Of a stretch of 64,000 nucleotides of DNA, positions 27,525-61,200 are shown piece after piece; the stretch's first letter is position 1; every line of letters begins with the position of its first letter. The stretch comes from Gammaproteobacteria bacterium (GTDB taxonomy: Bacteria > Pseudomonadota > Gammaproteobacteria > GCA-001735895), in assembly GCA_030595795.1 (NCBI GenBank), contig JAUVCH010000004.1, positions 4,502-68,501 on the forward strand, written 5' to 3'. The notes below the pieces were generated by a model that saw only the letters and a program-made list of their open reading frames with translations, made no database searches and had not been told where the DNA came from. A program made the position numbers and the translations under genes.

Positions 27525-27525
27525 C

Positions 27526-28425: not shown

Positions 28426-28641
28426 GACTGAAGAAATAAGTACGGAAAAATACTAATACCGAGGTTTGTTAATTCAACCTATCATAGGCTTCGGAGGATT
28501 AGTCTATGCGAACTATCAGTATTATTAAAAGTGAACACCGAAATCTTGCCTCAGTACTTTAACAGAATGGACAATTAATCAAGGAAACCAAGGACCCGAG
28601 TAAATGATTTAGCTATTCCCTTTTAATTTCATAATTCTATA

Positions 28642-29977: not shown

Positions 29978-29979
29978 GC

Positions 29980-45445: not shown

Positions 45446-47194
45446 TTGAAACAGACCATCCACGATCTGATCGAAGTTGCACTTAACGACATGCAAAAAA
45501 ACGGGCAGTTGTCCGATGATCTCAAAATCAATATCCAGGTCACCGCGACTAAAGATCGCAGTCAGGGTGACTTTGCCAGCAATATCGCAATGACTTTAGC
45601 GAAACAGGCAGGCCAACCTCCACGGCAACTGGCAGAAATGCTCGTCAGACAACTGGCTGACCACGACAGCATCGACAAGGTCGAAGTCGCCGGGCCCGGC
45701 TTTATCAATTTTTTCGTCGCCAGCGATGCCAGTCATTCGGTGATCAGCACTATCCTGCAACAGGGCGAGCAATACGGCCAAAGCAAGCACGGCAAGGGTG
45801 AAAAAATTCAGATCGAATTTGTTTCCGCCAACCCCACTGGGCCGTTGCACGTCGGTCACGGACGCGGCGCAGCCTATGGCGCGACACTGGCCAATATCCT
45901 GCGTTATGTCGGTTACGAGGTGCAGTGCGAATATTACGTTAATGACGCCGGTCGGCAGATGGACATCCTCGGCACGTCCGTCTGGTTGCGTTATCTCGAA
46001 CTCTGCGGCGTTGAAATCACATTCCCCAGCAATGGCTATCAGGGCGACTATGTCTGGGATATTGCTGCGACCCTGCATCGGGAAAACGGCGAACGCTTTC
46101 AACACAGCAGTGAAGCAGTCTTCAACAAAGTCTGCAGCGATGCCCCGCTGGGCGACAAGGAAAAACATATCGACGATTTAATCGCCAATGCTCAGGCCCT
46201 GCTCGGCGACGACTATCGGGTAGTATTCGATCTGGCCTTAAATACTCTAGTCGATGTCATCCGTAAAGACTTACACGCCTTCGGCGTCGATTACGACGAA
46301 TGGTTTTCCGAACGGTCGTTAGCCGACCAGGGTTTACTGGAAGCTGCGATCAAACAGCTCAACGAAAACGGCCACATTTACGAAAAAGACGGTGCTTTGT
46401 GGTTCCGGGGTACTGAGCTAGGCGACGAGAAGGATCGTGTCGTACAACGCGATAACGGTCAGACCACTTATTTTGCCTCTGACATTGCTTACCACAAAAA
46501 TAAACTGGATCGTGGCTTCGATCGCGTCATCAATATCTGGGGTGCCGACCACCACGGATATATCGCGCGGGTTAAAGCATCGCTAACAGCGCTTGGTTAC
46601 GATGCCGACCGACTCGAAATCCAGTTGGTACAATTCGCCAACCTGTACGAAGATGGCAAAAAAATGTCGATGTCGACTCGCTCCGGTGAATTCGTCACGC
46701 TCAAGCAACTGCGCAAAGACGTCGGCAAAGATGCGGCGCGTTTCTTTTACGTGATGCGCAAGGCCGATCAACACATGGACTTCGACCTCGACCTGGCCCG
46801 CGATCAATCCAGCGATAATCCGGTTTATTATCTGCAATATGCCTACGCGCGGATATGCAGTGTGAAACGCCAGTGCCGGGAGAAAGAGTTGGTAATTTCT
46901 GTCGAATCAGCGAATTTATCGCGCCTCGACAATGATCACGAACTCGAATTGATCAAGCAGTTAAATCTTTACCCCGAACGCGTACATAGTTCCGCCATGC
47001 GTCGTGAGCCGCATATCGTGGTGAATTACATGCGCGATCTGGCCAACCAGTTTCATTCCTGGTACAACGCGCACCAGTTTATCGTCGACGATGTCGAATT
47101 GCGCGACGCTCGTATGGCACTCGCCACGGCAGTCGGACAGGTGATGATTAACGGTCTCACCTTGATGGGTGTGTCTGCACCGGAAAAGATGTAA
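45446..47194 (+). CDS. argS: Arginine--tRNA ligase
   Basis: HIGH-type motif (…PTGPLHVGHGR…), KMSKS-type (…KMSMSTRSG…), and the N-terminal anticodon-recognition 'Arg_tRNA_synt_N' region. Confidence 0.95.
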   Translation: MKQTIHDLIEVALNDMQKNGQLSDDLKINIQVTATKDRSQGDFASNIAMTLAKQAGQPPRQLAEMLVRQLADHDSIDKVEVAGPGFINFFVASDASHSVISTILQQGEQYGQSKHGKGEKIQIEFVSANPTGPLHVGHGRGAAYGATLANILRYVGYEVQCEYYVNDAGRQMDILGTSVWLRYLELCGVEITFPSNGYQGDYVWDIAATLHRENGERFQHSSEAVFNKVCSDAPLGDKEKHIDDLIANAQALLGDDYRVVFDLALNTLVDVIRKDLHAFGVDYDEWFSERSLADQGLLEAAIKQLNENGHIYEKDGALWFRGTELGDEKDRVVQRDNGQTTYFASDIAYHKNKLDRGFDRVINIWGADHHGYIARVKASLTALGYDADRLEIQLVQFANLYEDGKKMSMSTRSGEFVTLKQLRKDVGKDAARFFYVMRKADQHMDFDLDLARDQSSDNPVYYLQYAYARICSVKRQCREKELVISVESANLSRLDNDHELELIKQLNLYPERVHSSAMRREPHIVVNYMRDLANQFHSWYNAHQFIVDDVELRDARMALATAVGQVMINGLTLMGVSAPEKM

Positions 47195-47688
47195 TGGCGA
47201 CTGAAAAATCAAATTCCCCCTGGGTCTGGGTCTTCCTGTTTTTGATGTTGGCGTTCTTCGCAGCGTTTATTATTTTTCTCGACCAGAAGCTGGTAGGGAA
47301 TAGCGTATCGACGCCGGTCGAAAAACAGGATCAGGATAGAACCAAACCGACCTTCGATTTTTATTCGATATTACCCGACCGCAAGGTTGAAATTCCGGTC
47401 AGTGAGGCCGAGCAGGAAGCGATCAAAAACCCCTCGATCAATAAAACATCCGGTGATCAGGCGCTATTACAGGTTGGTTCCTTCCAGGATTCCGAGGACG
47501 CCGAACGACTAAAGGCTGAACTGGCATTTCTGGGCCTGGAAGCTAGTGTAAAACCCGCAGAGGTGAATGACGACATCTGGCACCGGGTTCAAATCGGGCC
47601 ATTTCCAAGCGAAACCGCCCTCTCACGCGCGCAGAATTTATTGTTGGAAAATAATATAAAATACGTGCAGCGGAGTATGCCGCAGTAA
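47194..47688 (+). CDS. SPOR domain-containing protein (FtsN/DedD-like)
   Basis: N-terminal TM helix, low-complexity linker, C-terminal SPOR (…LLQVGSFQDSEDAERLKAEL…HRVQIGPF…). Confidence 0.8.
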   Translation: MATEKSNSPWVWVFLFLMLAFFAAFIIFLDQKLVGNSVSTPVEKQDQDRTKPTFDFYSILPDRKVEIPVSEAEQEAIKNPSINKTSGDQALLQVGSFQDSEDAERLKAELAFLGLEASVKPAEVNDDIWHRVQIGPFPSETALSRAQNLLLENNIKYVQRSMPQ

Positions 47689-47829
47689 GGGCGGGGTCAT
47701 TGGAATATGGGCTTGCGTAAGCCTCTTCTAATAGTTGTTTTAGCGAGGCTTTGATGCTCCTTTTTTTACTTGCCATTGTATATACATTGTATATACTTAA
47801 ATGTATTCAATGTAGATCCGGTGATTGCG

Positions 47830-48096
47830 ATGCGAGTAAATAGTGAAATTAGTCAGTGGGGTAACGGTTTGGCTGTAAGGTTGAACCGATCGGTTATTGA
47901 CGCCGCCAACCTAACTAAAGGCTGTAAAGTGCAGATTGAGGTAGATAAAACAGGGGTTCATATTAGTCCGGTTAAGGCAAAGAAAACAAGGTTACGGCTC
48001 CCGCTCAGTGAGGCTTCATTGCTTGCTAAGATAACGCCTGAGCTGGCTCATGCTGACGAACTGGCCCAGCCTTTATCTGACGAAGTGGGCGACTAA
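47830..48096 (+). CDS. MazE/AbrB-family antitoxin
   Basis: MRVNSEISQWGNGLAVRL… swapped-hairpin fold N-terminus. The track ORF begins at 47770, but the internal Met is more likely. Confidence 0.7.
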   Translation: MRVNSEISQWGNGLAVRLNRSVIDAANLTKGCKVQIEVDKTGVHISPVKAKKTRLRLPLSEASLLAKITPELAHADELAQPLSDEVGD

Positions 48097-48461
48097 TGGC
48101 GTCAAAATATATCCCTGAGCGTAAGGATATTATCATGCTTGATTTTGAACCTACTAAAGGGAAAGAAATCGGTAAGTATCGTCCGGCTATAGTGTTGAGC
48201 AGTAAGTTCTACAACAAAAAAACAGGATTACTTATATGTTGCCCGATAAGCACTAGCATACGCGGAGGATCTACCGAAGTTCCGGTAAATAACATCGATC
48301 ATCCTTCCGTTGTTGCGGCAAGCCTGGTGCAAACCTTTTCCTGGGGTGCCAGAAAAGCCAAGAAGATAGCAATTGCTGAAGAGGGTGTTTTTGAAGCAGT
48401 ACTTTTACGCCTTCTCCCGTTGCTAGGCACGGAAGAAATATTAGACGAGTTAACTGAATAA
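48096..48461 (+). CDS. MazF/PemK-family endoribonuclease toxin
   Basis: …KYRPAIVLSS…LLICCPISTS… PemK core; ATGGCG overlaps the antitoxin stop. Confidence 0.8.
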   Translation: MASKYIPERKDIIMLDFEPTKGKEIGKYRPAIVLSSKFYNKKTGLLICCPISTSIRGGSTEVPVNNIDHPSVVAASLVQTFSWGARKAKKIAIAEEGVFEAVLLRLLPLLGTEEILDELTE

Positions 48462-48496
48462 GGACGTATTCTTTATGGAAAAAATCACAATGTATT

Positions 48497-48856
48497 CTAG
48501 GGGCACGTTTTGTTTTCTTCCTGCAGGTTTTCCCCACGCCGGGCAGGTGTGACCAGGGTTCTGTGTTTGCTATTTGGGGCGAATACGTCGTGAAAACGCG
48601 TCAGATTGACTCGCGGTTTCGGTACCAGTGAGGCCAGTTTCGATATGAAATCCAGCGGCTCAAAGATCACATGGGTCGTGCCGTCTCTGTAGGGTGTTTT
48701 GAGCTGGTAGCGGATGTTGCCTGCTGATGTTAACGAAAGTCGTTTTTCCGATATGGAAGGGCGTGATATGTAACGGCACAACCTTTCCAGTTTGTCGCGC
48801 TCCCAAGCCTGAGCGGGAGGTGTAGTGGCTTGAATTGGGCAATTTTGGTTACTCAT
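48497..48856 (-). mobile_element. C-terminal fragment of an IS91/ISCR-family (Y2 HUH) transposase; remnant
   Basis: …LCRYISRPSISEKRL…IRYQLKTPYRDGTTHVIFEPLDFISKLASLVPKPRVNLTRFHDVFAPNSK… parallels the conserved C-terminal block of ISCR/IS91 transposases (…ARYLSRPPLSNERL…VRFE.KDY…F…L…V.P……IRHYGLLAN…). Only about 119 aa remain; the catalytic core is absent. Confidence 0.5.
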
Positions 48857-49332
48857 ACTTTGTATATGCAGATGCGGTAATGCTTATCAAATTCTATTAA
48901 TAAGTAAATCATTATATAACAATATAATGATAATTTAAATATATTCAACTGACAGCAAGTGATATCGCAACTTGTCGATATAACATACAGATAACTATGT
49001 AATCGGTTAGTGTCAGTTGATCTCAACGTGGATGCAATTGGCCCTGACCCTGATCGACTTTGTTAGCGAAGGGTATTTGGCTTTACAACAATTTTCAGGT
49101 TTTCACTAACGACTGAAACAAATTGGAGTAATTTAACTAGCTCGAGAACATCTGGCCTAGGGGCTAAAGGAAAGGCGCGACGGCAATTGATGCCGATACT
49201 GTAAAGATGCCGCAAACGCGGATTTCGTGATCAAAGCAGTTCTGGCGGTGCGCGAGACCCTGATCGAGGTGTTCGGGTCGGCTTGATGAAATCTGTTCAC
49301 CTGATGTAGTGCTGGCGTCCACTTCGGGTCAG

Positions 49333-49535
49333 CCCATCAACCGAATGGTCGAGACCTGGCGCACCCATATCAACAACAAAACGGAAAAATCATCATTGAC
49401 GGTTCCCGGTGGTACTTCAATAACCAGTGGCCCGGTCTTTTCTAAATCGAATGCATTGAAGGCATAAACAGTATCGGTGTTAGCGGTAAGAAACAGTGGA
49501 TTTGAAAGTAATGCGTCTAAATAATGCTTTAAAAA
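49333..49535 (-). pseudogene. Fragment of a DUF1254-family gene, with no start
   Basis: The reverse-strand translation …HYLDALLSNPLFLTANTDTVYAFNAFDLEKTGPLVIEVPPGT… matches the DUF1254 core (…PN.DT.Y..A.LDL..GP.VL.VPD…). It lies in a non-coding AT-rich stretch. Confidence 0.3.
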
Positions 49536-49855
49536 TCAATATTCTTAAGCTCTAAAAGTAAACCCTACAAAAACCTTACAAATCCAGTTATATTTAAGTA
49601 CTTACAGTTACTAGGATTTGGCATAGCTAAACAGACTGAGCGCGTAAATATAACAGATGATTTACACATCAATAAGCAGGCTGATTCTAAGCGTTGGCTA
49701 GCTAAGTTTAAAATAGGCAAAACGTGGCTAACTAAGACCACTAAAGACAAGTTGAATTAATCAGATCCTTGTAGTCTGTCGCCTCTTATTGGATGGACTT
49801 CCCAGACTTAAAGTGTTTGAGACATTAATTTCATAGATAAAATCCGTCTGTTCAA

Positions 49856-50869
49856 TTAGTTAAGATGTCGTTCGAACTCACTGGTATGCATCGCCTCAAA
49901 ACCATTGTTGGATTTCACTAAAAGATAAACAGGTATTTTATTTTGTTTGGCGAATAACATCGTTTTTTCCTTCCCCATCACCATAAAGGCAGTTGCAAAG
50001 GCATCGGCCAGCATTGTCTGTTGATGGAGTACTGTTACAGAAACCAATTGATGAGTAATAGGTCTCCCAGTAGTGGGATCAATTGTATGAGAAAACCTTA
50101 CTTCGTTTTTTTCAAAATAATTTCGATAGTCGCCGGAGGTTGCGACCCCAAGCCCTAGTGGTGAAAAAACCTTATGAATCTGACTCTGCTTTTCTACCGG
50201 CGCTTCGATGGCTAGTCGCCAGGGTTTGGAGTCTGGATTCATTCCCTTTGAAGCCGTTTCTCCACCGATTTCAACAAGATAATTTTCGATATCATTAGTT
50301 CTTAATAGTTCAGTGATTTGGTCGACCCCATACCCTTTGGCTATCGCAGAAAGGTTAACGGATATATTTGCGTTTTCTTTTTTTATGCAGGCGATCCCTA
50401 ATGATAGCTTTTCGAACCCGATTTGTTGCAATAAACTCTTTATTTTCCGCTTGTTGGGTACGACATCATTGGTCTGTTTTTTATCGAAACCCCATTCAGA
50501 TATTAACGGTCCCACCGTTACATCAAAATTTCCGCCTGTCAGTCGGCTGACTTCAAGCGAATTTTTGATTACATAAAATGTTTCTGTCGAAACAGGTTGG
50601 CAGTCTAAAGAAGTCGATTGATTGAATCGCGATAATTCCGAATCATCAATATAAGTCGACATAAGTTGGTTGATTCGGTTTAGTTTTTTTTCAATTTTCG
50701 CGTGCAAGTGGTTAGCATTATCTTGACTTGCTTTTAGTGTAATTCGGTAACTAGTGCCCATGGTGAAACCACTGAGATGAAGGTAGTCATCTTCCTTTTC
50801 GCAGCCAGCCATCAGGCATACTGCTAAAGTAGCCACTAACAACCGGTAAATAATATTAAACTGTTCCAA
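49856..50869 (-). CDS. apbE: FAD:protein FMN transferase (ApbE family) lipoprotein
   Basis: Lipobox LMAGC and ApbE motifs: …GFTMGTSYRI…, …DVTVGPLISEWGF…, …AIAKGYGVD…, …GGE…, …TSGDYRNYF…, …HTIDPTTGRP…, …ADAFATA…. Confidence 0.85.
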   Translation of the reverse strand: MEQFNIIYRLLVATLAVCLMAGCEKEDDYLHLSGFTMGTSYRITLKASQDNANHLHAKIEKKLNRINQLMSTYIDDSELSRFNQSTSLDCQPVSTETFYVIKNSLEVSRLTGGNFDVTVGPLISEWGFDKKQTNDVVPNKRKIKSLLQQIGFEKLSLGIACIKKENANISVNLSAIAKGYGVDQITELLRTNDIENYLVEIGGETASKGMNPDSKPWRLAIEAPVEKQSQIHKVFSPLGLGVATSGDYRNYFEKNEVRFSHTIDPTTGRPITHQLVSVTVLHQQTMLADAFATAFMVMGKEKTMLFAKQNKIPVYLLVKSNNGFEAMHTSEFERHLN

Positions 50870-51356
50870 GTGTTTTCCCGTAGATCTGGTCTACTAAATT
50901 TGGTCGGCTAAATTAGGTGATTTACTCACACAAAAGAGGACAGTTCAATAGTCCTCTTTGTATCTAAACAAGCTGCTCTAGAATAAAAAGGGTCAGATCA
51001 CGCTTTCCCCTGCATCTATTAAAAAATTGAATTGCTATATCAAAACCTCTTTCGAGAAAGGCTCATGAATTCGCTTGATAGGCATAACAATAAAATCCAC
51101 AAATATGTTTGGGTGAGTGAGCAACTCTTGTGTTTATAATAGTACGTTATTAGTGGTGATTTAATTTATCATATCGACAAGGAAACAGGGAATAGTTGAC
51201 ACAGATCAACAAGGGGTAATTAAAAATGACTATCGTGAACTCATTAGAGATATTTTAAAAAATACCAAAATTATGTAGTTTTAAATTTTATTTTAGGCCG
51301 CAACTTTGACCCATGTAATTTTAGGGTTTAGTAATTTTTTCTGGAGAACACTTTTA

Positions 51357-54242
51357 ATGAACGACTTCAACACTCGGCTGAGTTCACTATCGAGTAAAGC
51401 TATTATCGCATTACTGAGCGCAGGTCTCATTAGTGGGAACGGCATTGCTCAAGTACCCAATCCCGAACCCACCACTTACACCGATGTGTCAGTTCCTCAG
51501 CTGACAGGCTGGAATGATGCCAATATTGTTACTTTGGATGGCATGACTGGCGCCACGGAAAAGAGCCACATCTATGAATCTGCTGCGGCTATAGTCGACC
51601 CTACCAAGAGTAGTGTAGCGGCTGTATTCTGGGAATTGGACAATGGCAGTGGTCGTGCACCGGGTATACAGGTTGTCACCGACGACTTTGATGTCCCGAC
51701 TAACAACTGCATCATGGCCTCAGGCGAGCTTGAAAGTGTTGATTTCCCTGGCACCATCGTGCCCAAAACCTGTAGTGACCCACAGGGCAGCTCCAAGCGT
51801 TATTTTCTTGAGATGACCTCGAGTGACGTACCGATAGACATGGCGTTTGATCTCGGCGTCAAGGATATCCGCTACAAGGGTGTCAAGGATCCTGAAACCG
51901 ATGGTGGTGAGGCGCTGGCTGAGTTTAAAGCGACTTACGGCATCGGGCGTATCTATCGCGTGATCCAGAAGGTCATCAATAACACAGAGAAGCGTATTGC
52001 CAGCTACAAGTTTGAGCTGGGTACCGGTCTGGGAGATGCATTCCTGCCGCTGACTTTTGAGGAGCATGGTGTTGGCTTCGAGATGCTTCCTTTGGTGCCA
52101 CGCGAGTTCCTTGAGGGAGAAACCGGCGCGCCTGATATCGCTGTATGGGACTCACTACGCTTTGCGACGGTCTCGCCAAAAATGTTTGACGATGGATCCC
52201 GTGCACGATTTGATCCTGGATTTCTGGATCACAATGCTGCGGGCTTTCTGCCCCCACAGCTTCCAGCTGTTGGCGTCGAAAAGAGCCAGTATATCGACAG
52301 TGGCACGAGTATTGTCGACGGTATAATTGGCTCTATGACCCCCAATTATTTTAATATCGCCGATACTCAAGGTGTCTTACTGCCTGGTAACATACTGGGT
52401 TACCAGCTTTCCGATTCGCTGATACCGGAAGTCATTGGTGAATACAATACCAATGAGATTGGTGGCGAGTCAGATTCGATCGTTGCCATATGGGACGGTT
52501 CCGACTGGCGCTCTGGACGCGCTGGACTTGATGGATTACCTGGACTTGACGATCTCGACCCTGATGCGGCAGATAATTATGGAATTATTCCAGACGCTCA
52601 ATTAATACAATGGGCAGCCAAGCCGCTTGGTCTGGATCTTGATACCGATGACGAGACAGACCCAGACTTCGTTCGTTATGAGGTTATATTGAGTGATGAC
52701 CTATCTGGCCTGAATACCGATTTTTTCATCTATATCGGCGACAAGTTGCTGGATGATACCGGTGAGCTGATACTGGACTCTATCACTTTGCGTCTCACAG
52801 CAAATTCTGTTGAAGCGGTTATTGGTGATGTGCCCGGTAGCGAAGATCCGCCCTGGGGAAGTGATTTAGATGCTAGCAGAATAGACGCACCGACACTGGC
52901 CAGCTATATGCCGGTTACAGGCACGCCGATTGCCATCAACGACATTACTACCACTGTGGAAGATGACCCGTCTACCACTATTACTATTGATGTCCTGGAG
53001 AATGACCTGCTGGATGGTGCGGCAGTAGTTCCAGCCGACGGGTTTATTACGATTACAACACCTCCCGAAGACGGCATTGCTACTATCGTTGGCAATGAGA
53101 TCGAATACACTCCGGATGCAGATTTCGTCGGTACCGATTTCATTAGCTATACTTATACGCTAACCGCGGGTGCGGTCGTCTCCAATATCGCAACCATCAA
53201 GATAATTGTGGAGGCGGCACCGATACCGGATCAACCGTTGGCCGTTAACGACTCCGCTACTACGTTCAAAGACATACCGGTAACCCTCGATGTGCTGGTC
53301 AATGATGAACTGTACAACGATGCCCCCAACACAGTGGTGGTCAGCATCAATAATGATGCCCTGAACGGTGTTGCAAGTGTGGCGGGCGACAACACCATCG
53401 TCTATACCCCGGGTGCAGACTTTGTTGGTTTCGAACGCTTCACCTACGTTGTAACAGTGGATGGCATAGTTTCGAACTCTGCTCTGGTCACGATTAAAGT
53501 TGATTCTTTTGGTATTCCGGATGCAATCAACGACATTACTGTCACCCTTGAAAATGACCCGGTTACCATTGATGTCCTGGAGAATGACGTGCTGGAAGGT
53601 GTGCCAGTAATTCCAGCAGACGGGTTTATTACCATTACAAAAGCTCCCCAAAACGGCAGTGCTGCTGTCGTTGACCAAAAGGTCGAATACACTCCGGATG
53701 CGGGTTTTACCGGTACCGACTTAATTAGCTATACGTATACACTAACGGCGACTGGAGATGTATCCAATACCGCAATCGTCACAATCATTGTGGATGCGGC
53801 ACCGATACCGGATCAACCGTTGGCAATTAACGACTCTACCACTACGTTCAAGAACACAGCGGTAACACTCGATGTGCTGGACAATGATGAACTGAACAAC
53901 GATGCCCCCAGCACAGTGGTGGTCAGCATTAATAATGCCGCCCTGAACGGTGTTGCACGCGTGGAGGATGACAACACTATTATCTATACCCCGGGAATAG
54001 AATTTGTTGGTATCGAACGCTTCACCTACGTTGTAACAGTAGATGGCATAATTTCGAGCTCTGCGCTGGTCACGATCAGAGTTGATGAGCCTGTTGTTGT
54101 GGTACCGGTTGCTACTGGTGGTAGTGGTAGATGTTCGCTCTCCTACAATCCGGACGGTAAAATCGATCCCCTGCTGCCCGGTATAGTCCTTGTCAGTCTG
54201 ATTTACCTGGGATGGAGATCAAGGAAAAATGATGCCAGGTGA
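51357..54242 (+). CDS. Large secreted cadherin-like/Ig-like tandem-repeat surface protein with an N-terminal FMN-attachment-type motif (DGMTGAT) and a C-terminal sorting-signal-like tail
   Basis: I take the start as the internal ATG at 51357 (SD GGAG, then a Sec signal …IIALLSAGLISGNGIAQ); the track ORF runs from 51306. Four C-terminal ~100-aa repeats show the …DVLxNDxxxG…YTPxxxFxGxDxFTYxV… pattern. The tail reads …TGGSGRCSLSYNPDGKIDPLLPGIVLVSLIYLGWRSRKNDAR. Confidence 0.8.
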   Translation: MNDFNTRLSSLSSKAIIALLSAGLISGNGIAQVPNPEPTTYTDVSVPQLTGWNDANIVTLDGMTGATEKSHIYESAAAIVDPTKSSVAAVFWELDNGSGRAPGIQVVTDDFDVPTNNCIMASGELESVDFPGTIVPKTCSDPQGSSKRYFLEMTSSDVPIDMAFDLGVKDIRYKGVKDPETDGGEALAEFKATYGIGRIYRVIQKVINNTEKRIASYKFELGTGLGDAFLPLTFEEHGVGFEMLPLVPREFLEGETGAPDIAVWDSLRFATVSPKMFDDGSRARFDPGFLDHNAAGFLPPQLPAVGVEKSQYIDSGTSIVDGIIGSMTPNYFNIADTQGVLLPGNILGYQLSDSLIPEVIGEYNTNEIGGESDSIVAIWDGSDWRSGRAGLDGLPGLDDLDPDAADNYGIIPDAQLIQWAAKPLGLDLDTDDETDPDFVRYEVILSDDLSGLNTDFFIYIGDKLLDDTGELILDSITLRLTANSVEAVIGDVPGSEDPPWGSDLDASRIDAPTLASYMPVTGTPIAINDITTTVEDDPSTTITIDVLENDLLDGAAVVPADGFITITTPPEDGIATIVGNEIEYTPDADFVGTDFISYTYTLTAGAVVSNIATIKIIVEAAPIPDQPLAVNDSATTFKDIPVTLDVLVNDELYNDAPNTVVVSINNDALNGVASVAGDNTIVYTPGADFVGFERFTYVVTVDGIVSNSALVTIKVDSFGIPDAINDITVTLENDPVTIDVLENDVLEGVPVIPADGFITITKAPQNGSAAVVDQKVEYTPDAGFTGTDLISYTYTLTATGDVSNTAIVTIIVDAAPIPDQPLAINDSTTTFKNTAVTLDVLDNDELNNDAPSTVVVSINNAALNGVARVEDDNTIIYTPGIEFVGIERFTYVVTVDGIISSSALVTIRVDEPVVVVPVATGGSGRCSLSYNPDGKIDPLLPGIVLVSLIYLGWRSRKNDAR
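52920..54100 (+). repeat. Intragenic tandem (A-B)x2 duplication of two ~300-bp units encoding cadherin-like domains
   Basis: A1 (~52920-53215), B1 (~53215-53515), A2 (~53515-53800) and B2 (~53800-54100). Identical stretches such as gcggcaccgataccggatcaaccgttggc appear at ~53213 and ~53799. Confidence 0.8.
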
Positions 54243-54265
54243 GTAAACACTAATAGTTCAATGTT

Positions 54266-54299
54266 AAAAACCCCTCTCTTGTCGAGGGGTTTTTGTTTT
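54266..54299 (+). terminator. Rho-independent terminator between the repeat protein and the CPBP protease gene
   Basis: AAAAA-CCCCTC-tcttgtc-GAGGGG-TTTTTGTTTT. Confidence 0.65.
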
Positions 54300-54306
54300 A
54301 ATAAGC

Positions 54307-54858
54307 ATGATGACGAAACAATTTGAGCCTAACAAGCATGTCTGCGGCCCATTCCAGAGACTCTTCGTAATGAACTTGCTGCGCGAAATCGGTTTAAAAC
54401 ACAAAGCAGGGTGTTATTTCAATTACCGTTTTGTGCTGACAATCCTGGCAGGCATATTAGCAGTCTGGGTGATACATGGTTGGGTGCAGCCTTACCCATC
54501 ACATGTTGAATTTAACTGGCTGCAGTTACTATCGCTGATTGTCTGGCAGCCGCTGCTTGAAGAAGTGCTGTTTCGCGGCATTATTCAAGGACAGCTTGCC
54601 AAATATGAATGGGGTAAACGCTCGCGGTTGAATATCAGCAGTGCTAATGCCGCAACGTCAGTATTGTTTGTTGCGATGCATATGGTTAACACTTTGCCAT
54701 TGTATGCACTGACTATATTTGCACCTTCGCTGGTTTTAGGTTATTTCCGTGACTACTGCGACAGTATTTACCCATGTATTGTTATTCATGGCACCTTCAA
54801 TGCGATGATTTTTGCGGGATTAATTTTAAACGGCAATATGAATTTACCAACAATGTGA
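54307..54858 (+). CDS. CPBP-family (CAAX protease-like) intramembrane glutamic/metallo-protease
   Basis: All three CPBP motifs are present: EEVLFRG (EExxxR), FVAMH (FxxxH) and HGTFN (HxxxN), on a multi-TM 183-aa protein. Confidence 0.8.
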   Translation: MMTKQFEPNKHVCGPFQRLFVMNLLREIGLKHKAGCYFNYRFVLTILAGILAVWVIHGWVQPYPSHVEFNWLQLLSLIVWQPLLEEVLFRGIIQGQLAKYEWGKRSRLNISSANAATSVLFVAMHMVNTLPLYALTIFAPSLVLGYFRDYCDSIYPCIVIHGTFNAMIFAGLILNGNMNLPTM

Positions 54859-55171
54859 TATAGGAATTCAAGTCGCGAGACATTGCTTGTATCAGCGTGT
54901 CCGAAATTTCTTTGTAACGTTCTATACTTTTATGCAGATGAGCGCATTTTAGGTAACAGACGGTAACATTGTTAAGTGCTTCCGCCGAGCTACCGTGGGC
55001 TTGCAGGTATAAATCTTCACAGGCTATCAGATCTCCGGGTATTCGAACCAGCTTATGAATTTGCTGTTTGCCATTGGGCAGGGTTTTATAAACTTTGACT
55101 TCACCTGATAACAGAATATACAGGTGCTTACTGGTGTCACCCTCCTTGTATAGAGTGTAAACCCACCTGTT
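54797..55171 (-). pseudogene. Truncated Crp/Fnr-type cNMP-binding domain gene fragment (no start, no HTH)
   Basis: Reverse-strand ORF …YKEGDTSKHLYILLSGEVKVYKTLPNGKQQIHKLVRIPGDLIACEDLYLQAHGSSAEALNNVTVCYLK… gives the cNMP-binding beta-barrel motifs. An upstream stop precedes it and it has no initiator. Its 3' end overlaps the CPBP gene. Confidence 0.45.
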
Positions 55172-55352
55172 TTAGTGCCACCCAACAATAGAGTTTTCCT
55201 GTTCATGTTTCAATCGGTATTCGACTGGTGTTAATTTCCCAAGTGACTTGTGGGGTCGACCCAGAGGAGCTATTGAGTACGATGTAAAGATTCTCAGTTT
55301 ACTAATTACTGTATACTGGCATTTCAATGTGATTCTCTAGGGAGAGACTGAA

Positions 55353-56339
55353 ATGACAAGAATCATAAATTGGATTAACAAACTGATCATTGGTGTGTTA
55401 CTCGCCGCCCCAGCATTATCGAATGCCGACCCAATTCACGAAGCAGCAGAAAGTGGTGATGTTGATCAGATTTTGAAACTGCTCGACGGTGGGGCCGACG
55501 TTAACGCTCCAGACCTTGACGGGACACCTCTTCAATGGGCATTATTTTCCAACCAAATAGAAGTTGCTCGACTTCTTCTAAAGCGTGGTGCAAATCCAAA
55601 TGTTAAAGGGTGGGATGGAACGCTACTGGAATCGGCCGCGCTTAACGGTAAAACCGAGATTGCCAAAGTTCTTCTTAAACATGGTGCTAATCCTAATAGC
55701 GGAGATCGCTCCACACCTTTAATCCGGGCCGTGCAAAAGGGAAGTTTAGAAATCATCGCGTTACTTCTCACTCAGGATGCCGATCCTAGCTTGGCCACTC
55801 CTGACGGAACCACTCCCTTACACGAAGCCGCCCATGGAGGTAAATTGGAGATCGCAAAGCGATTAGTTGATAGTGGGGCCGATGTTAACGCACTCAATGG
55901 AATAGGTAGGCCAGCCATCCATTTCGCTGTTGAAAAGAACCACTCCATTTTGGCTGCTTATCTAAAGAAACATGGTGCAACACCAGGTAAGATCGCTTCC
56001 ATTACAGACCTACTCGCCTCCGCTGACGCAGCACAAGGAAAGACGTTAGCCGAGAAGCAGCTTTGTGTTGATTGCCATATCGTGGACAAGTATGGCCCAC
56101 CCTTATGGAATGTAGTGGGCCGTAAAAAGGGTAGTGTCAATGATTATTCTTATTCCCCACCATTTGAGGCTTTAAAGGGCAAATGGTCCTTTGAAGCACT
56201 CAACGTATTCCTGGCTCGTCCTACCGAAGTCGTACCTGGCACAAAGATGAACTTCCGTGGTATTTCGGACCCACAAATGAAAGCTGAGGTAATCGTTTAT
56301 CTACGATCTTTAAGTGACGATCCAGTACCACTTCCGTAG
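55353..56339 (+). CDS. Periplasmic ankyrin-repeat protein fused to a C-terminal class I cytochrome c (c2-like) domain
   Basis: Sec signal (…LLAAPALSNA), about five ANK repeats (…TPL..A…G…V..LL..GA..N…), then CVDCH heme-binding and a …PGTKMNF… Met-ligand motif, with the cytochrome c2 pattern GPPLWNVVGRKKGS…YS…. Confidence 0.8.
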   Translation: MTRIINWINKLIIGVLLAAPALSNADPIHEAAESGDVDQILKLLDGGADVNAPDLDGTPLQWALFSNQIEVARLLLKRGANPNVKGWDGTLLESAALNGKTEIAKVLLKHGANPNSGDRSTPLIRAVQKGSLEIIALLLTQDADPSLATPDGTTPLHEAAHGGKLEIAKRLVDSGADVNALNGIGRPAIHFAVEKNHSILAAYLKKHGATPGKIASITDLLASADAAQGKTLAEKQLCVDCHIVDKYGPPLWNVVGRKKGSVNDYSYSPPFEALKGKWSFEALNVFLARPTEVVPGTKMNFRGISDPQMKAEVIVYLRSLSDDPVPLP

Positions 56340-56472
56340 GGATTTCGAATAATACGAGAGCCCGCAATTTGGCCGAACCCGGCCTAATTGAAAGAATTAT
56401 TGAATGTCGACTACCTGGCCGCTGTCATTAAATTCACAAACCAAAAACCCCGGTCCAACGCCCTCTAACAAG

Positions 56473-56868
56473 TTATTTGGTGGGTAGCCCGGCAGCCAAT
56501 AGTACTTTCATACCGCCGTCGATGTAGGAAACATTAGTGACGCCCATATCGGTGAGTAGGTTTGCCGCGGTTGCTCCACGGTAGCACGGCGACGATCCAC
56601 AGGTCGTTATAATTCGGCGTGCGCGGTCTCGAAGTTCCGGCTCTCGATATTGTTCGTCGAACTCCAGGTCTGCTTTCCAAGCTATCGATCTGCCGGGTGC
56701 ATTGATCGCACGTATACCCAAACCGGTCGCCTGTACTTCAGACTCGTCGCGAACGTCTACCAACAAGGCATTCGAGTCCCGTTCGAGTTCTTGCAAAGTG
56801 TCTTCAGCGCTAATCGTCTAGGCCTGCGCCATGGCCTCATCGGCCAATTGTAAAAATGTCTTAGCCAT
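56473..56868 (-). pseudogene. Rhodanese-domain protein interrupted by an in-frame amber (TAG) codon at codon 17
   Basis: ATG at ~56868 with SD AGAGGAA gives MAKTFLQLADEAMAQA-TAG-TISAEDTLQELERDSNALLVDVRDESE… in one frame. The track ORF restarts at TTG 56796. Confidence 0.55.
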
Positions 56869-56881
56869 TACTAGTTCCTCT

Positions 56882-57079
56882 CTAATTTTTGATTTTGATC
56901 AATGCCTGAATCTGGCCCCTTTCGTCATCGCTCCAGTCCGAAGCATCCTCCCCATGCGCGATCTTGCCGTGGATCTCGAGCAGTTGCCATAGTTCGGCTT
57001 CCGTTTCCGCCTGAAACTTACTAGGACAGGCTTCCATGCCCGGGTATTCACTATATGCATATGAGTACGCAGTCATCAT
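56882..57079 (-). CDS. DUF1059-like small protein (65 aa)
   Basis: Small acidic His-containing ORF with its own SD-like sequence; family assignment is tentative. Confidence 0.45.
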   Translation of the reverse strand: MMTAYSYAYSEYPGMEACPSKFQAETEAELWQLLEIHGKIAHGEDASDWSDDERGQIQALIKIKN

Positions 57080-57583
57080 TATTACCTCCAGGATTTAATT
57101 CGATGAATTTTGCCGCTGTGCGCAAGCATAGGGAGTATAAAAGCCATATCTCTCAATAACAAACTGCGAAATCTAATCCAGCTTCTTTCCTTTTCCGTGT
57201 GATTTACTGAAATGCCTGAAAAATTCGTCCATTTTTCACGCATTAGTTTGATCGCTTTCAACAATTTGTCATCATAAGCACATAGCAACCTGCACCGCCA
57301 ATTGGTGGCAACACTTCAAATCATGAAACGTATTAGGTACTGTGAGTAAAGCGAATGGCAGCTCTTGAGTAATTTCCATTGTTGAAACCTAAACCTTCCT
57401 GCAAATCCTAAAGTATCACAAGACATATTTTTTTTGGCAGAAAGTTGTCAATCCAAAAATGTAAGATAGCGAACCTACGACAAATCTTTTTTTTAGCTGA
57501 AAAATCCAGGTTAGCTTGAGTCAAGACTGCATAAGTTATTGATCTATTAGCATGCGCAATTTAAGCATATTTGTGTGCTGACC

Positions 57584-58267
57584 TCACCGGTACAAGCTGT
57601 ATTGAAACCATTCGGGAATCCTGTCCCTGGCTTGATTTAATACCGATTCATGGTCGCGATAGTCGGCGCAATGGCTTTCCACCAGTCGCCAGAATTTGGC
57701 GGAGTGGTTCATGTGTCGGGTATGGCATAACTCGTGAATCATCAAATACTCGGCTGTTGCTGTCGGCACGAAAGTCAGTTGATCGTTCAAACTGATGGTG
57801 CCACGCGAAGAACAACTGCCCCAGCGAGTTTTCTGGCTGCGTATACTGACTTTTTTGTAATCCAGTGCACAGACTTGAGATACTCTTTCGAGCATTGGCG
57901 GTAGTATTTCCCAGGCCTGCTTTCGAGTCCACTGTCGTAGGCACTGGATATTTTTATCGAAGCTACTGCCCTGAAATTCGAAGTCTTCTGTGCTGGTCAG
58001 ACTATTATCGACGGGCAGATAAATTTGATCGGGTAATTCTGGTTTCGTGTATTTTTGCTGATGCTTTTTTAACTGGCGCTGAATCCAGCCCGTATGCTGC
58101 TTTATTAGCTCGGGCACCGCTTTCTTCGGGAAACGGGTGGGAATGACGACTTCGAGACCGAGATAGGGTTTGATCTGCAGTTTTGCGTACCTGGCTTTGC
58201 GTGAAACACGTATAGAGTAATCAAATAGTGTATTCCCACTACCATCGACTATAGAATCGCTCGCCAT
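57584..58267 (-). CDS. M48-family metallopeptidase, YgjP/DUF45-like
   Basis: HELCH zinc motif (…YLMIHELCHTRHMNHS…); divergent from hrpA. Confidence 0.8.
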   Translation of the reverse strand: MASDSIVDGSGNTLFDYSIRVSRKARYAKLQIKPYLGLEVVIPTRFPKKAVPELIKQHTGWIQRQLKKHQQKYTKPELPDQIYLPVDNSLTSTEDFEFQGSSFDKNIQCLRQWTRKQAWEILPPMLERVSQVCALDYKKVSIRSQKTRWGSCSSRGTISLNDQLTFVPTATAEYLMIHELCHTRHMNHSAKFWRLVESHCADYRDHESVLNQARDRIPEWFQYSLYR

Positions 58268-61200
58268 GTCTACTAAGCAACCATCATTAGAAAACCGTAT
58301 TCTACATCAGTGTCGATCTATCGACCGAGGGAGATTGCTCGGATTATTAAAAAAATCACCGCAGGCTAATCAAAAAACGAGGTTGCTGGCAGCGCTCGAG
58401 CAATCCACCGACCTTGTCGATTTACGCGCCGAGAAAAGGCCACAAGCTAATTTTAATACTGAACTGCCGTTCATTAATCATAGGGAAGAACTTGCGGAAG
58501 CAATTTCGAAGCATCAGGTCGTCATCGTCTGTGGCGAAACCGGCTCAGGCAAAACCACGCAGTTACCACAGTTGTGTCTCGATATGGGGTTGGCAGATAG
58601 AGGCTTAATCGGCCATACCCAGCCGCGCCGAATTGCCGCGCAGTCGGTCTCCAGCCGCATTGCTGAAGAATTGAAAACTGAGGTTGGTGCTGCGGTAGGC
58701 TATAAAATTAGATTTCAGGATCGAACCAGTGATTCGGCATATATTAAATTAATGACTGACGGCATTTTGCTCGCCGAGACCCAAAACGACCGATGGTTAA
58801 GCCCATATTCAACTATCATCATCGACGAGGCCCACGAACGCAGTCTCAATATCGACTTACTTTTGGGCTATATCAAACAACTATTACCTCGGCGGCCCGA
58901 TCTCAAATTAATCGTGACTTCGGCAACCATCGACCCACAACGCTTCGCCCGATATTTTAACAACGCACCAGTGCTGAATATCAGTGGCCGAACCTACCCG
59001 GTCGAAATGCGCTATCGACCACCTGCCGAAGATGATCGCGATAATTTGCAACTACTCGCAGATGCGGTAGACGAACTCGATAGCGTCGCACGCGAAGATA
59101 TCCTGGTATTTTTCCCGGGTGAGCAACAAATACGAGATGCAGCAGAGAAGCTCGGCAAGACTCATTCGCGCGATTACGACATTCTGCCACTATACTCACG
59201 ACTCAGTTCCGCCGAACAGAAGAAAATATTCCAGCCGCACCAGAAACGGCGCATCGTGCTAGCGACTAATGTCGCCGAGACTTCACTCACCGTGCCGGGC
59301 ATTCGTTATGTAATCGATACCGGGCTTGCGCGAATATCACGCTATTCCTGGCGCGCACGGATACAGCGCCTGCCGATCGAAAAAATCTCTCAGGCCTCGG
59401 CTAACCAACGTAGCGGTCGATGTGGACGACTCGCCCCAGGGGTTTGCATTCGGCTCTACGATGAAGAAGACTTCAATTCGCGGGACGAATTTACCGAGGC
59501 TGAAATACTACGGAGCAACCTGGCTTCGGTTATCTTGCAAATGAATGACTTGAACCTCGGTTCAATCCACGAATTTGAGTTTATCGAGAGCCCAGACAGT
59601 CGATTAATCAACGACGGCTACCGTCTGCTATACGAATTACGCGCAACCGACAAGGATGACCGTATTTTAAAGCACGGCCATCAATTGGCCAGAATACCGG
59701 TGGATCCTCGCCTGGCGCATATGCTGGTTCGCGCCGGTGAGCTTCACTGCCTGAGTGAAATGCTAATTATTGTTAGCGCCCTGTCGATTCAGGACCCGCG
59801 TAGTGCCTCCAACGAGAACCGGCAGGCAGCCAATGAAAAATACAAAGTCTGGCAGCACGAAAGCTCCGACTTTATGTTCTGGGTATCGCTGTGGCGGGGT
59901 CTAAACGAACAAAAGTTTGAGCTTAGCCGCAATCATTTTTCACGCTGGTGTCGAAAACATTTCCTCTCCTACCCACGGCTACGCGAGTGGCAGGACATTT
60001 ATCAACAACTAAAACAGCAGCTCAAGGAGCTCGGCTATAAATTCAACAGCACTGCTGCCGACCCGGACAGTATCCATCGCGCCATCTTCAGCGGTATCCC
60101 CAGTCACATCGCGAGCTTTGACAAGGAAAAACAGTTTCAGGGAACTCGCGGCAGGCAGCTGATGATTTTCCCCGGCTCTTCGTTGGCAAAAGAAACCCCT
60201 AAGTGGATGATGGCATTCTCGTTAATCGAAACCAGTCGCCTGTTTGCGCATGGTGTCGCACGGTTTAACCCGCAGTGGGCCATGCAGGACGCCAGTCACC
60301 TGCATCAATACGAATATTACGAACCCCACTGGCAGGCCCGACAGGGGCGTGTCGCCGCATTCAGGAATACGCGAATTTATGGGCTTTTAGTCGAAGGTGG
60401 CAAGCGCGTTAATTTTTCATCCATCGACACTAAACAGTCGCGGCAGATTTTCATTCAGAGCGCTTTAGTCGAAGGTGAATATCGCAGCCGAATCGAAGTC
60501 ATTAATGCCAATCGAAAACTCATCGAACATTACCAACAACAGGAAGACAAGTACCGTCGCCGCGATATCCTCATCAGCGACCGGCTATTGTACGAATTTT
60601 ACGATGCTCGTTTACCGCCCGAAGCAGTCGATGCCACGAGCTTCGAAACCTGGATCAAAAAACAGCCCCCCGACCAGATAAACGAACTTCGTTTTCTTTC
60701 GATAGACATTGCCGACCCATCGATAGACGAAGAGAAACGGTCTGGTTATCCAGAGCAAATTGATGTTCACGGTCAAAACCTGAAGCTCGACTATCTTTTC
60801 GAACCGGGGAATGAATTTGACGGCGTTACTGCTAGCATTCCATTATTGTTACTTAACCAGGTTTCCGATCAGGACTTCGAATGTCTCGTACCCGGTTTGT
60901 TGGAAGAGAAGGTGGAATCTTTAATCCGTAGCCTGCCACGAAAGCTGCGTAAAAACTTTGTGCCGGTGAATGAGTTTGCCAACGCCTGTCTGGAACGCAT
61001 GGACTCGGATACCGACCTCTTAACCTCGTTGCAGAAATCGTTATTGGCAATGACCGGCATCAACGCCTCCCTTTCAGAATGGAACCCTGCTTCACTCGAT
61101 ACGCATTTGCAAATGCACTATGCACTTTACGATGATCAGGATTGTATCGCACAGTCGCATAGCATTGATTCGCTACAACAACAGTACGGCAAGCAGGCGC

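Follow-up and report, generated by a model that had tools for sequence, protein, structure and literature searches.

A patchwork accessory segment between the SPOR and ygjP genes of a gammaproteobacterium, with a surface protein and its own sorting protease as working core

Does the fragment-strewn, partly AT-rich DNA downstream of argS in this gammaproteobacterial contig represent one acquired island that has decayed, or was it assembled in parts? Within the window (the whole 64,000-nucleotide stretch analysed) it is a ~9.9 kb segment of accessory DNA, ordinary and patchwork, lying between two housekeeping genes (Table 1). In 26 related loci, with ArgS identities of 70–85%, ArgS, SPOR and YgjP are contiguous and the SPOR-to-YgjP distance is 20–760 bp, the same gap here measuring 9.9 kb (47689–57583). 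On the SPOR side, nucleotide homology to L001 and L002 reaches 47687–47691, and backbone homology to relatives starts again only at 57593, the rhodanese gene and DUF1059 ORF therefore lie within the segment. None of 80 ArgS loci carries any segment gene. Alignment to relatives bears out the claim of a preliminary description that the DNA is inserted, as the segment is missing at the site in every relative with enough sequence. Its limits (47770–56400) were wrong at the right edge, the rhodanese gene it assigned to the backbone is inside the insert and missing from the 80 ArgS loci, and mazEF and the IS91-family remnant, which it took as bounds, both lie at the left end and bracket nothing. Contigs of the closest backbone relatives (L001 and L030) stop at or before the insertion site, and since no relative with backbone dS well below 1 spans it, the order and timing of events proposed below are inferred. 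In L002 the SPOR–ygjP gap is occupied by another gene, which makes the site a variable one, and repeat-like filler occupies it in L008 and L016.

Table 1 Features of the segment and its flanks (positions in the window).
Feature	Position	Strand	Evidence
SPOR-domain gene, left backbone flank, downstream of argS	47194..47688	+	Pfam SPOR; nucleotide homology
Whole lineage-specific inserted segment, ~9.9 kb, in convergent SPOR/ygjP gap	47689..57583	.	Relatives' contiguity, homology break, GC
mazE-like antitoxin gene	47830..48096	+	Weak MazE match NF007312, E 1.5e-5
mazF/PemK-family toxin gene	48096..48461	+	PF02452, 68.2 bits
ISCR2-like (IS91-type) transposase gene, internal fragment	48497..48856	-	NF052416 ISCR clade Ia, 141.5 bits
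DUF1254 gene fragment	~49398..49502	-	PF06863, E 2.7e-6, profile positions 15–48 of 133
apbE, FAD:protein FMN transferase lipoprotein, intact	49856..50869	-	PF02424, 287 bits, full-length match
Choice-of-anchor F surface protein, four Big_9 repeats, JDVT-CTERM-like tail	51357..54242	+	NF033657, 209.9 bits; Big_9 x4
DGMTGAT codons, exact match to ApbE flavinylation motif	51537..51557	+	Motif scan
Tandem duplication of two-domain Big_9 unit (~590 bp) inside surface-protein gene	52926..54100	+	Direct repeats D1, D2
Strong terminator-like hairpin between surface-protein gene and mrtJ	54265..54295	+	12-bp stem, then T run
mrtJ, glutamic-type intramembrane (CPBP) sorting protease, JDVT-CTERM system	54307..54858	+	NF033192, 104.9 bits, cut-off 75
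Truncated Crp/Fnr-type regulator gene, cNMP-binding domain only	54797..55168	-	PF00027, 46.5 bits, 54917–55156
IS3-family transposase C-terminal remnant (probable, weak)	55172..55327	-	tblastn E 1e-3, 39% identity to annotated IS3 transposases
Periplasmic ankyrin-repeat/cytochrome c fusion gene, intact, single-gene module	55353..56339	+	Ank x5 + Cytochrom_C
Rhodanese gene, single-domain, inside insert	56473..56796	-	PF00581; GC 0.540; absent from 80 ArgS loci
DUF1059 gene, small, intact	56882..57079	-	PF06348, 27.3 bits, cut-off 21.1
ygjP-like metallopeptidase gene, right backbone flank	57584..58267	-	PF01863; adjoins SPOR gene in 26 relatives

At the left end, the listed mazE-like ORF begins with TTG at 47770, the likely start being the ATG at 47830, its stop overlaps the mazF start, and a promoter-like site lies close by (47770–47797). 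The pair resembles plasmid-type MazEF/PemIK modules in that an AbrB/MazE-like antitoxin gene precedes and overlaps that of the PemK-family toxin, and in the 70–73% identity of its MazF to Vibrio plasmid copies, but is chromosomal and sits at an islet edge; as an E. coli-type MazF the protein scores under the NCBIfam cut-off. The adjoining transposase gene had been described as a C-terminal IS91/ISCR-type fragment, of which the family and place hold; the piece (Y2_Tnp/ISCR) is internal, covering only positions 323–419 of 509 in the NF052416 profile. Over ~108 residues it shares 75–78% amino acid identity with plasmid ISCR2 copies beside floR and tet(X3). ISCR2 is an IS91-like rolling-circle element of multi-resistance plasmids, whereas the fragment has no recognisable N-terminal catalytic part or ends, is accompanied by no resistance genes, and belongs to an uncultured environmental gammaproteobacterium; no further ISCR2-like pieces were found within the window. 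The DUF1254 fragment sits in the ~1 kb of AT-rich non-coding DNA noted earlier (48857–49855, GC 0.397).

The choice-of-anchor F surface protein (the "repeat protein" of the preliminary description) has 120 homologues. An AF2 model of its N-terminal domain reached a pLDDT of 83.6 and had no fold match in the PDB. Within the gene, direct repeats D1 and D2 share 79–82% identity at a spacing of 582–591, and L119 and L120 each hold a single Big_9 unit which aligns to both. Its tail (aa 946–971) scores 23.7 bits with NF033191, just under the cut-off of 27, and has the tripartite Cys/DP/TM/Arg layout of JDVT-CTERM clients, with a single Cys and DP motif, then a hydrophobic helix, then a cluster of basic residues. 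It departs from them in that score and in the spacing from Cys to DP, which is 11 residues instead of 9, as it also is in the closest homologues (P0004 and P0009). MrtJ, encoded immediately downstream, has an Rce1-like CPBP match, scores over the MrtJ cut-off and has the CPBP catalytic motifs (EEVLFR, FVAMH and HGTFN, read from the sequence), and in at least 10 other loci mrtJ lies directly 3′ of surface-protein homologues. Homology of this two-gene module to L084, L119 and L120 begins at 51058/51186 and stops exactly at 54858, the mrtJ stop codon, which is the precise end of homology to L119 and L120. On sequence grounds, the repeat protein and the CPBP protein are a client and its sorting protease. 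In loci whose clients are 74–81% identical, MrtJ is only ~40–46% identical to the one here, which suggests that tail and protease are swapped together. MrtJ would cleave the surface-protein tail, thereby helping attachment to the cell surface; this cleavage model is Haft's, made in silico (bioRxiv 10.1101/2023.06.07.544157), and a related protease, myxosortase, has been tested experimentally (PMC11980579). The client/protease pairing had gone unrecognised in the preliminary description.

Upstream, the divergently transcribed apbE encodes a lipoprotein with the lipobox LMAGC, read from the sequence. This module is homologous to L102, L113 and L114 between 49811/49851 and 51092/51228, and L102 and L113 retain the divergent apbE/surface-protein order, as L114 probably does too. 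An N-terminal loop of the surface protein contains DGMTGAT, which matches exactly the ApbE flavinylation motif D-x-x-[S/T]-G-A-[S/T] (PMC12052999), and is its sole occurrence in 19,953 aa of the window's long ORFs (0.004 expected in the surface protein). Homologues of the nearer clade have kept the motif. The surface protein thus carries a putative flavin-attachment site beside the gene for a flavin-attaching enzyme, and this loop's threonine may receive FMN from the periplasmic ApbE lipoprotein before sorting. That apbE adjoins a protein with an ApbE recognition motif had been missed earlier. At slightly better than even odds, however, the adjacency is accidental, apbE being a copy, moved or duplicated, of the gene serving Na+-NQR, and the loop a structural element that is never flavinylated: the protein is 67% identical to the ApbE of an nqrABCDEF-apbE-nqrM locus, distant surface-protein homologues have no apbE within 10 kb (e.g. 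L081, L082, L083, L085, L087, L089, L090, L092 and L103), L119 has an IS remnant upstream in its place, the apbE-adjacent homologue of L113 has lost the motif (VDDGVTEQS), and one whole clade of the family is without it. Against coincidence, besides the exactness and rarity of the match and the retained gene order, the motif is kept from Vibrio to Marinobacter and Alcanivorax though the loop is otherwise variable, it takes the same form as a relative's NqrB site (VDGYSGAT), seven residues in accessible loops or termini are enough for ApbE, and low AF2 confidence in the loop suggests flexibility. Compared with known ApbE substrates (NqrB/NqrC, RnfD/RnfG, FMN_bind, DUF2271, DUF3570, Flavodoxin_4 and FMN_red; PMC8238504, PMC11334425), the surface protein is likewise exported, has the exact motif and in this lineage has apbE next door. 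It differs in that its domain is not a known flavinylated fold and matches no solved structure, the candidate motif is placed in a loop near the N-terminus of a large protein of the cell surface, and apbE is not a constant neighbour within the family.

To the right of mrtJ, the Crp/Fnr-type fragment has no HTH and its N-terminus is missing; it does overlap the CPBP 3′ end as first described, its open frame extending to 54797. In L081, L083, L085 and L086, intact Crp-family genes flank the surface-protein cassette. The IS3-like remnant closely precedes the Crp fragment, in the same frame, and gave no match in Pfam/NCBIfam searches. Homology of the Ank-cytochrome c gene to L117 is confined to 55311–56358, elsewhere the gene occurs in other contexts, and the L118 copy adjoins an integrase. 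Profile searches recovered all gene families and fragments named earlier (mazEF, transposase, DUF1254, ApbE, repeat, CPBP, cNMP and ANK-cytochrome), truncated genes and mobile-element remnants do litter the segment, and the view that the intact genes are under selection agrees with purifying dN/dS of 0.11–0.30 (apbE 0.16–0.18, repeat protein 0.17–0.30, Ank-cytochrome c 0.11–0.19).

The DNA had been read as a single coherent low-GC island, acquired horizontally at once and decayed to a few selected genes. GC is indeed 0.449 in the segment vs. 0.489 in the backbone, and the 378 stretches of equal size elsewhere in the window all reach at least 0.471; the site is also empty of the segment in relatives, and a transposase and gene fragments lie inside it. 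The AT-richness is patchy, however: only one third of 1-kb windows inside the segment lie under the backbone's 5th percentile, and its parts span 0.33 to 0.54, the low values coming from mazEF (0.43–0.45), apbE (0.40), mrtJ (0.43) and non-coding stretches (0.33–0.42), whilst the repeat gene, the largest (0.498), the rhodanese gene (0.540), the ISCR fragment (0.517) and the DUF1059 gene (0.500) are at or above backbone GC. Neither a tRNA nor an integrase was found in the segment, nor any flanking direct repeat, and the IS remnants belong to two unrelated families, each at a different internal junction. On metagenome contigs, apbE, the repeat-protein and CPBP pair and the Ank-cytochrome c gene occur as separate modules with sharp homology breakpoints and different, unrelated, IS-rich flanks (IS4-, IS1595-, IS6- or IS91-like genes or an integrase), so that the segment is better read as a piecemeal mosaic than as one decayed island, which we consider unlikely.

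We therefore favour, with a probability of roughly 0.75, a lineage-specific flexible islet filling the gap between the SPOR gene and ygjP/hrpA and assembled piecemeal from independent modules through IS-associated insertion and recombination, rather than one integrative element. The modules would be a plasmid-like left end (mazEF with the ISCR2-like fragment, then the DUF1254 fragment), apbE, the two-gene cassette of the surface protein (with its Cys-containing JDVT-CTERM-like tail) and MrtJ, the truncated Crp-type regulator abutting the IS3-like remnant, the single ankyrin-cytochrome c gene, and the rhodanese and DUF1059 genes; later truncations would have left fragments at their junctions. 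Part of the segment could instead be an assembly chimera, strain-variable or foreign fragments having been joined through short repeats in the MAG contig: relatives of apbE and Ank-cytochrome c are almost only on 1–6 kb contigs, so the region assembles poorly, and the junctions of mazEF/ISCR/DUF1254 and of mrtJ/Crp/IS3/Ank-cytochrome c/rhodanese/DUF1059 are known from this one contig. We regard this as improbable, as the backbone continues collinearly past the segment in the expected orientation, no repeats were found at the junctions, and the apbE/surface-protein and surface-protein/mrtJ junctions, the only ones so reproduced, recur in independent contigs from other samples. That the segment is ancestral and was deleted in relatives, to which the variability of the gap might lend itself, is more improbable still, as 26 relatives without a single segment gene at the site would require many independent clean deletions, and the segment holds mobile-element remnants and plasmid-like genes.

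The piecemeal islet has no essential difference from the flexible islets and IS-rich variable regions of marine Gammaproteobacteria (additive, integrase-less hotspots): it lies between conserved genes, is missing in relatives, and combines mosaic composition, TA modules, IS remnants and cell-surface genes with poor metagenome assembly, though at 9.9 kb it is small, and truncated fragments are unusually plentiful at its junctions. mazEF may help to keep it in the genome. At its working core stand a surface protein that has received little study and the sorting protease dedicated to it.

The segment was delimited by comparison with related genomes. A scan for ArgS across species-representative genomes yielded 80 loci, every one belonging to an uncultured gammaproteobacterium or a more distant genus; the ArgS-SPOR-YgjP order was present in 26 of these (ArgS identity about 70–85%) with a convergent SPOR/ygjP gap of 20–760 bp, and hrpA was found after ygjP in two (L002 and L003). 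None of the 80 loci carries any of the segment's genes; relatives with the same genes at the site, which would speak against the horizontal acquisition proposed in the preliminary description, were thus absent from this set. Nucleotide homology to loci L001 and L002 ends at 47687–47691 and restarts at 57593, which sets the inserted segment as 47689–57583 (9.9 kb). The island first outlined, at 47770–56400, was smaller and its right end misplaced, as the rhodanese gene, there counted as backbone, and the DUF1059 gene both lie inside the insert. Other genomes hold a different gene in the same gap (a 245-codon membrane-protein gene in L002) or repeat-like filler (L008 and L016), and the gap is therefore a recurrent variable spot. 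The short elements in L008 (12250–12842) and L016 (2399–2609) are related, share ...CKNIP(V/A)VTL... on both strands and resemble REP-like or miniature repeat filler, whilst the edges of our segment shared nothing with the intergenic DNA of L001, L002, L003, L008 or L016.

In its absence from related genomes at the site the segment resembles a classical integrase-type island, ICE or prophage remnant, but it differs from an integrase-type island in having no integrase, no tRNA or tmRNA target and no flanking direct repeats. Neither the ORFs nor six-frame scans of the non-coding parts of the segment gave an integrase or recombinase, no tRNA or tmRNA was found in the 64 kb, and looking for direct or inverted repeats at the segment ends gave no more than short, chance-level matches. 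An Rfam scan of 47000–58500 gave nothing at E ≤ 0.1, and the plasmid and phage collections contained no near-identical DNA when the whole segment was compared with them by megablast.

The GC content of the segment is 0.449 against 0.489 for the window backbone, and since none of 378 same-length windows elsewhere fell below 0.471, the deviation is real. The low-GC character described earlier holds to this extent, but the segment is not uniformly AT-rich, its parts ranging from 0.33 to 0.54 (table). Small accessory inserts were also found in other short low-GC patches of the window. The patch at 28500–30000 (0.41), between the DUF484-xerC pair (26820–28425) and hslV (from 30371), holds a vapC-like PIN-domain toxin gene (29558–29977, minus strand) and looks like a small toxin–antitoxin insert; the patch at 41928–42973 (minus strand, 0.38) contains a PIN_3-domain gene overlapped by an HTH_17 gene, probably a toxin–antitoxin pair inserted after an aldehyde-dehydrogenase gene. 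The lowest-GC patch of the window (6129–7342, plus strand, 0.36) encodes a pesticin/phage-lysozyme-like toxin domain (PF16754, 159 bits) and, overlapping this gene downstream, a lipoprotein without family match; the two could be a toxin/immunity pair.

Table. Features of the inserted segment with position, strand, GC content and remarks.
Feature	Position	Strand	GC	Remarks
mazE-like ORF and PemK/MazF toxin gene	47770/47830-48461		0.43-0.45	first after the SPOR-domain gene
IS91/ISCR transposase fragment	48497-48856	-	0.517	119-codon ORF, middle part only; profile match
AT-rich non-coding DNA, ~1 kb	between transposase fragment and apbE
DUF1254 fragment	about 49398-49502	-		six-frame translation of non-coding stretches against Pfam
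apbE	49856-50869	-	0.40	intact; encodes a lipoprotein
repeat-protein (surface-protein) gene	51306/51357-54242	+	0.498	961-978 codons
CPBP/Rce1-like gene (mrtJ)	54307-54858	+	0.43
cNMP-binding fragment	54917-55156	-		open frame extends to 54797, into the CPBP 3' end
51-codon tail	directly upstream of cNMP-binding fragment			in frame with the fragment; ends ...HKSLGKLTPVEY...
ankyrin-cytochrome c gene	55353-56339
DUF1059 gene	56882-57079		0.500	intact, 65 codons; found in six-frame Pfam scan of non-coding parts
rhodanese gene			0.540
non-coding stretches			0.33-0.42

Profile matches (Pfam and NCBIfam) and ORFs agreed with the gene layout and family assignments of the preliminary description, and the six-frame Pfam scan recovered both gene fragments it had listed, DUF1254 and cNMP-binding, the latter in a frame that does overlap the CPBP 3′ end. 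At the left end, the mazF start coincides with the end of the upstream mazE-like ORF, the overlapping-antitoxin layout of a type II toxin–antitoxin system; MazF matches PF02452 at 68.2 bits, misses the E. coli MazF equivalog cut-off (95.9 vs. 120) and is 70–73% identical to MazF of Vibrio plasmids. The transposase fragment beside it covers only profile positions 323–419 of 509, where a full-length protein would be about 500 aa, and its ~108 remaining internal residues share 75–78% identity with ISCR2 copies that adjoin floR and tet(X3) on IncC and Acinetobacter plasmids. No further ISCR2 pieces turned up in the window in a tblastn search, for which the query was an incomplete ISCR2 copy of 200 aa. 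Judged by these protein similarities, the left end (mazEF and the ISCR2-like fragment) has plasmid affinities. The 51-codon tail upstream of the cNMP-binding fragment weakly resembles the C-terminus of IS3-family transposases (E 1e-3).

Modules of the segment recur separately on other metagenome contigs. The apbE gene and a portion of the spacer upstream of it match L102 (91.5% nucleotide identity), L114 (87%) and L113 (80%), with left breakpoints at 49811–49852 and right breakpoints at 51092 (L102) and 51228 (L114); homology to L102 restarts within the surface-protein gene, at 51335, and that to L113 continues into the same gene to 51838. The repeat-protein and CPBP pair matches L084, L119 and L120 from 51058–51243 onward, ending in L119 and L120 precisely with the stop codon of CPBP (54858), and the match of the ankyrin-cytochrome c gene to L117 is confined to 55311–56358. 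Each contig has its own flanks around these modules, with many mobile-element genes: L113 carries IS4-like ORFs beyond apbE, L119 an IS1595-like remnant where apbE would be, L120 an IS6-like gene after CPBP and L118 a phage-type integrase near the ankyrin-cytochrome c homologue. The occurrence of the modules apart from one another, in different IS-rich surroundings, implies that the segment is a stepwise mosaic, which would have been built via IS-associated insertion and recombination, with the gene fragments marking former module junctions. The alternative of one low-GC island, acquired whole and since eroded, is disfavoured; insertion with decay, which it also entails, stands, but the segment's modules circulate separately, and the segment is without integrase, tRNA or end repeats. 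As a genomic island this stepwise mosaic is an ordinary, small, IS-scarred flexible region of little importance in itself, its use being as a worked example of a flexible region assembled from independently circulating modules.

Close relatives of the segment's apbE (19 sequences at ≥90% identity) and ankyrin-cytochrome c gene occur in many samples, almost only on contigs of 1–6 kb (clusters of the homologous proteins P0121 and P0257–P0260), consistent with a region that varies between strains and fragments assemblies. IS91-family transposase fragments 45–56% identical to the window's (L096 10169–10372, L097 6090–6293, L099 174–293) lie within ~1–2 kb of distant choice-of-anchor F genes on hypersaline-sediment contigs, which hints that the choice-of-anchor F cassette is recurrently associated with IS91-type elements. 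Pairwise dN/dS against the homologous contigs was 0.16–0.18 for apbE, 0.17–0.30 for the repeat protein and 0.11–0.19 for the ankyrin-cytochrome c gene, compared with 0.04–0.05 for ArgS; on these estimates all three genes are under purifying selection, relaxed relative to housekeeping genes, in agreement with the earlier presumption of selection on the intact genes.

The repeat protein belongs to the choice-of-anchor F family (NCBIfam NF033657, 209.9 bits, residues 105–498 of the listed ORF) and consists, in order, of the choice-of-anchor F domain, four Big_9 domains and a JDVT-CTERM-like tail. This tail, GGSGRCSLSYNPDGKIDPLLPGIVLVSLIYLGWRSRKNDAR, contains one Cys, a transmembrane stretch and an RSRK..R end, and its best-matching sorting-signal model is JDVT-CTERM (NF033191), at 23.7 bits against a cut-off of 27, which it misses. 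The CPBP gene, 64 nt from the client gene on the same strand, encodes MrtJ (NF033192, 104.9 bits, above the cut-off of 75), with EEVLFR, FVAMH and HGTFN in its translation as the CPBP motifs EExxxR, FxxxH and HxxxN/D, and mrtJ follows client homologues in at least ten other loci. MrtJ is the protease proposed to process the JDVT-CTERM signal, which is defined by a single Cys, a nearly invariant DP in the helix nine residues after the Cys and an Arg cluster, the protease gene being adjacent and clients numbering about one per genome (Haft, bioRxiv 10.1101/2023.06.07.544157). The window's tail fits this description save that its DP lies 11 residues after the Cys instead of 9; the spacing is 10 in the homologue P0001 and 9 in Marinobacter homologues. 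By profile, motif and gene order, the cassette is a member, with a variant tail, of this family described in silico. A strong hairpin with a 12-bp stem and a T-run separates the two genes (54265–54295) and may lower expression of the protease relative to its client; taken as a whole, the scans for promoters and terminators did not rise above chance.

Within the client gene, 52926–54100 is a tandem duplication of a two-Big_9-domain unit (~590 bp, 79–82% identity), of which the L119 and L120 homologues have a single copy; these two carry the window's tail variant and share 87% nucleotide identity with it across mrtJ and the 3′ portion of the client gene (53517–54858). The N-terminal domains of the window and L081 clients are 74–81% identical, their C-terminal tails differ, and the MrtJ proteins (54307–54858 vs. 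L081 12684–13148) share only about 40–46% identity. Tail and protease appear to have been swapped together by recombination, with the N-terminal domain kept. A Crp-family regulator recurrently neighbours the cassette (L081, L083, L085, L086), and the truncated Crp-type gene in the segment is consistent with a regulator that formerly sat beside such a cassette and is now reduced to a fragment; orthology of the fragment with the intact cassette-adjacent Crp genes is not supported at an identity of only 26–32%, which makes this a recurring association rather than shown synteny. The AlphaFold model of the client N-terminal domain is confident (pLDDT 83.6, pTM 0.84), a Foldseek search of the PDB gave no match to it (best E-value 0.7) and hence no functional clue from the fold, and plasmid-borne relatives of the domain were not found. 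The cassette is a clean natural example of a JDVT-CTERM/MrtJ client–protease pair, a system known so far from computational work only.

About 30 residues past its signal-like N-terminus the client carries DGMTGAT (51537–51557), an exact match to D-x-x-[S/T]-G-A-[S/T], the motif whose last residue takes FMN from ApbE and whose seven residues are enough for the enzyme in accessible loops or termini (PMC12052999). It is the sole such motif in the 19,953 residues of the window's long ORFs, with 0.004 expected in the client, it has the same form as VDGYSGAT, the NqrB site of a relative, and it lies in a loop of low confidence in the AF2 model. Among 106 homologues with an N-terminus the strict motif occurs in 51 and a loose form in 10; it is conserved in the window's nearest clade, including Vibrio, Photobacterium, Marinobacter, Alcanivorax and BD1-7, and its place is taken by an unrelated conserved loop, VDP-ESPDGRTYIY, in a Thioalkalivibrio/Wenzhouxiangella/Myxococcota clade. 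Read from the sequence only, the client has a signal-like N-terminal hydrophobic segment and the C-terminal sorting tail. The apbE gene is its divergent neighbour in the window, L102 and L113; contig L114, which has apbE and most of the spacer on that side, ends before the client gene. On L114 apbE is followed by an 815-residue lipoprotein (1652–4099) with cadherin-like/Calx-beta domains and at least five CxxCH haem motifs, a second example in the lineage of apbE beside a large extracytoplasmic redox/surface protein.

That choice-of-anchor F genes generally have apbE as a neighbour was rejected, as the two are adjacent in close relatives only and none of nine more distant client homologues has apbE within 10 kb. 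An obligate link between the two genes is disfavoured by these distant loci, by the IS remnant in L119, by the loss of the motif in the L113 client next to apbE, and by the location of a 67% homologue of the window's ApbE in an nqr operon; the window itself contains no nqr genes. The client has no FMN_bind, DUF2271, DUF3570 or flavodoxin domain as found in known flavinylated classes, the flavinylation surveys do not list choice-of-anchor F, and the literature searched contained neither a link of this family to flavin nor, in the flavinylation and myxosortase papers, a mention of choice-of-anchor F or Big_9 proteins. JDVT-CTERM proteins are in some cases encoded beside DUF3570/DUF4266/TlpA genes (Haft, bioRxiv 10.1101/2023.06.07.544157), a cluster tied to ApbE (Meheust et al.), and together these give an indirect precedent for a link between sorting signal and flavinylation. 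The uniqueness of the motif, its NqrB-like form, its position in a low-confidence loop, its conservation in the clade and the neighbouring apbE speak for a possible flavinylation of the client by ApbE, to which we assign a probability of about 0.35. The wider reading is just as tentative: an unrecognised class of ApbE substrates, bearing flavin at the cell surface, would be made up of the choice-of-anchor F family in marine Gammaproteobacteria (Vibrio, Photobacterium, Marinobacter, Alcanivorax, the BD1-7 clade and the window's own lineage).

Under such flavinylation, FMN would be covalently attached in the periplasm to the Thr/Ser of the D-G-x-[S/T]-G-A-[T/S] loop, ~30 residues after the signal peptide, after which MrtJ, or rhombosortase in the case of Alcanivorax, would anchor the protein at the surface by means of the C-terminal signal with its Cys. 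The outcome would be an outer-surface flavin protein whose fold resembles no solved structure, and beside which the transferase gene apbE would have come to lie divergently in the window's lineage. A possible flavinylated surface protein, combining the choice-of-anchor F family without a matched fold, an exact and clade-conserved ApbE site and an apbE neighbour in the lineage, is the only element of the segment that would surprise a specialist. If true, the known substrates of extracytoplasmic flavinylation would gain a class of cell-surface proteins, and there would be a testable lead on the surface redox chemistry of common marine bacteria, including Vibrio and Marinobacter.
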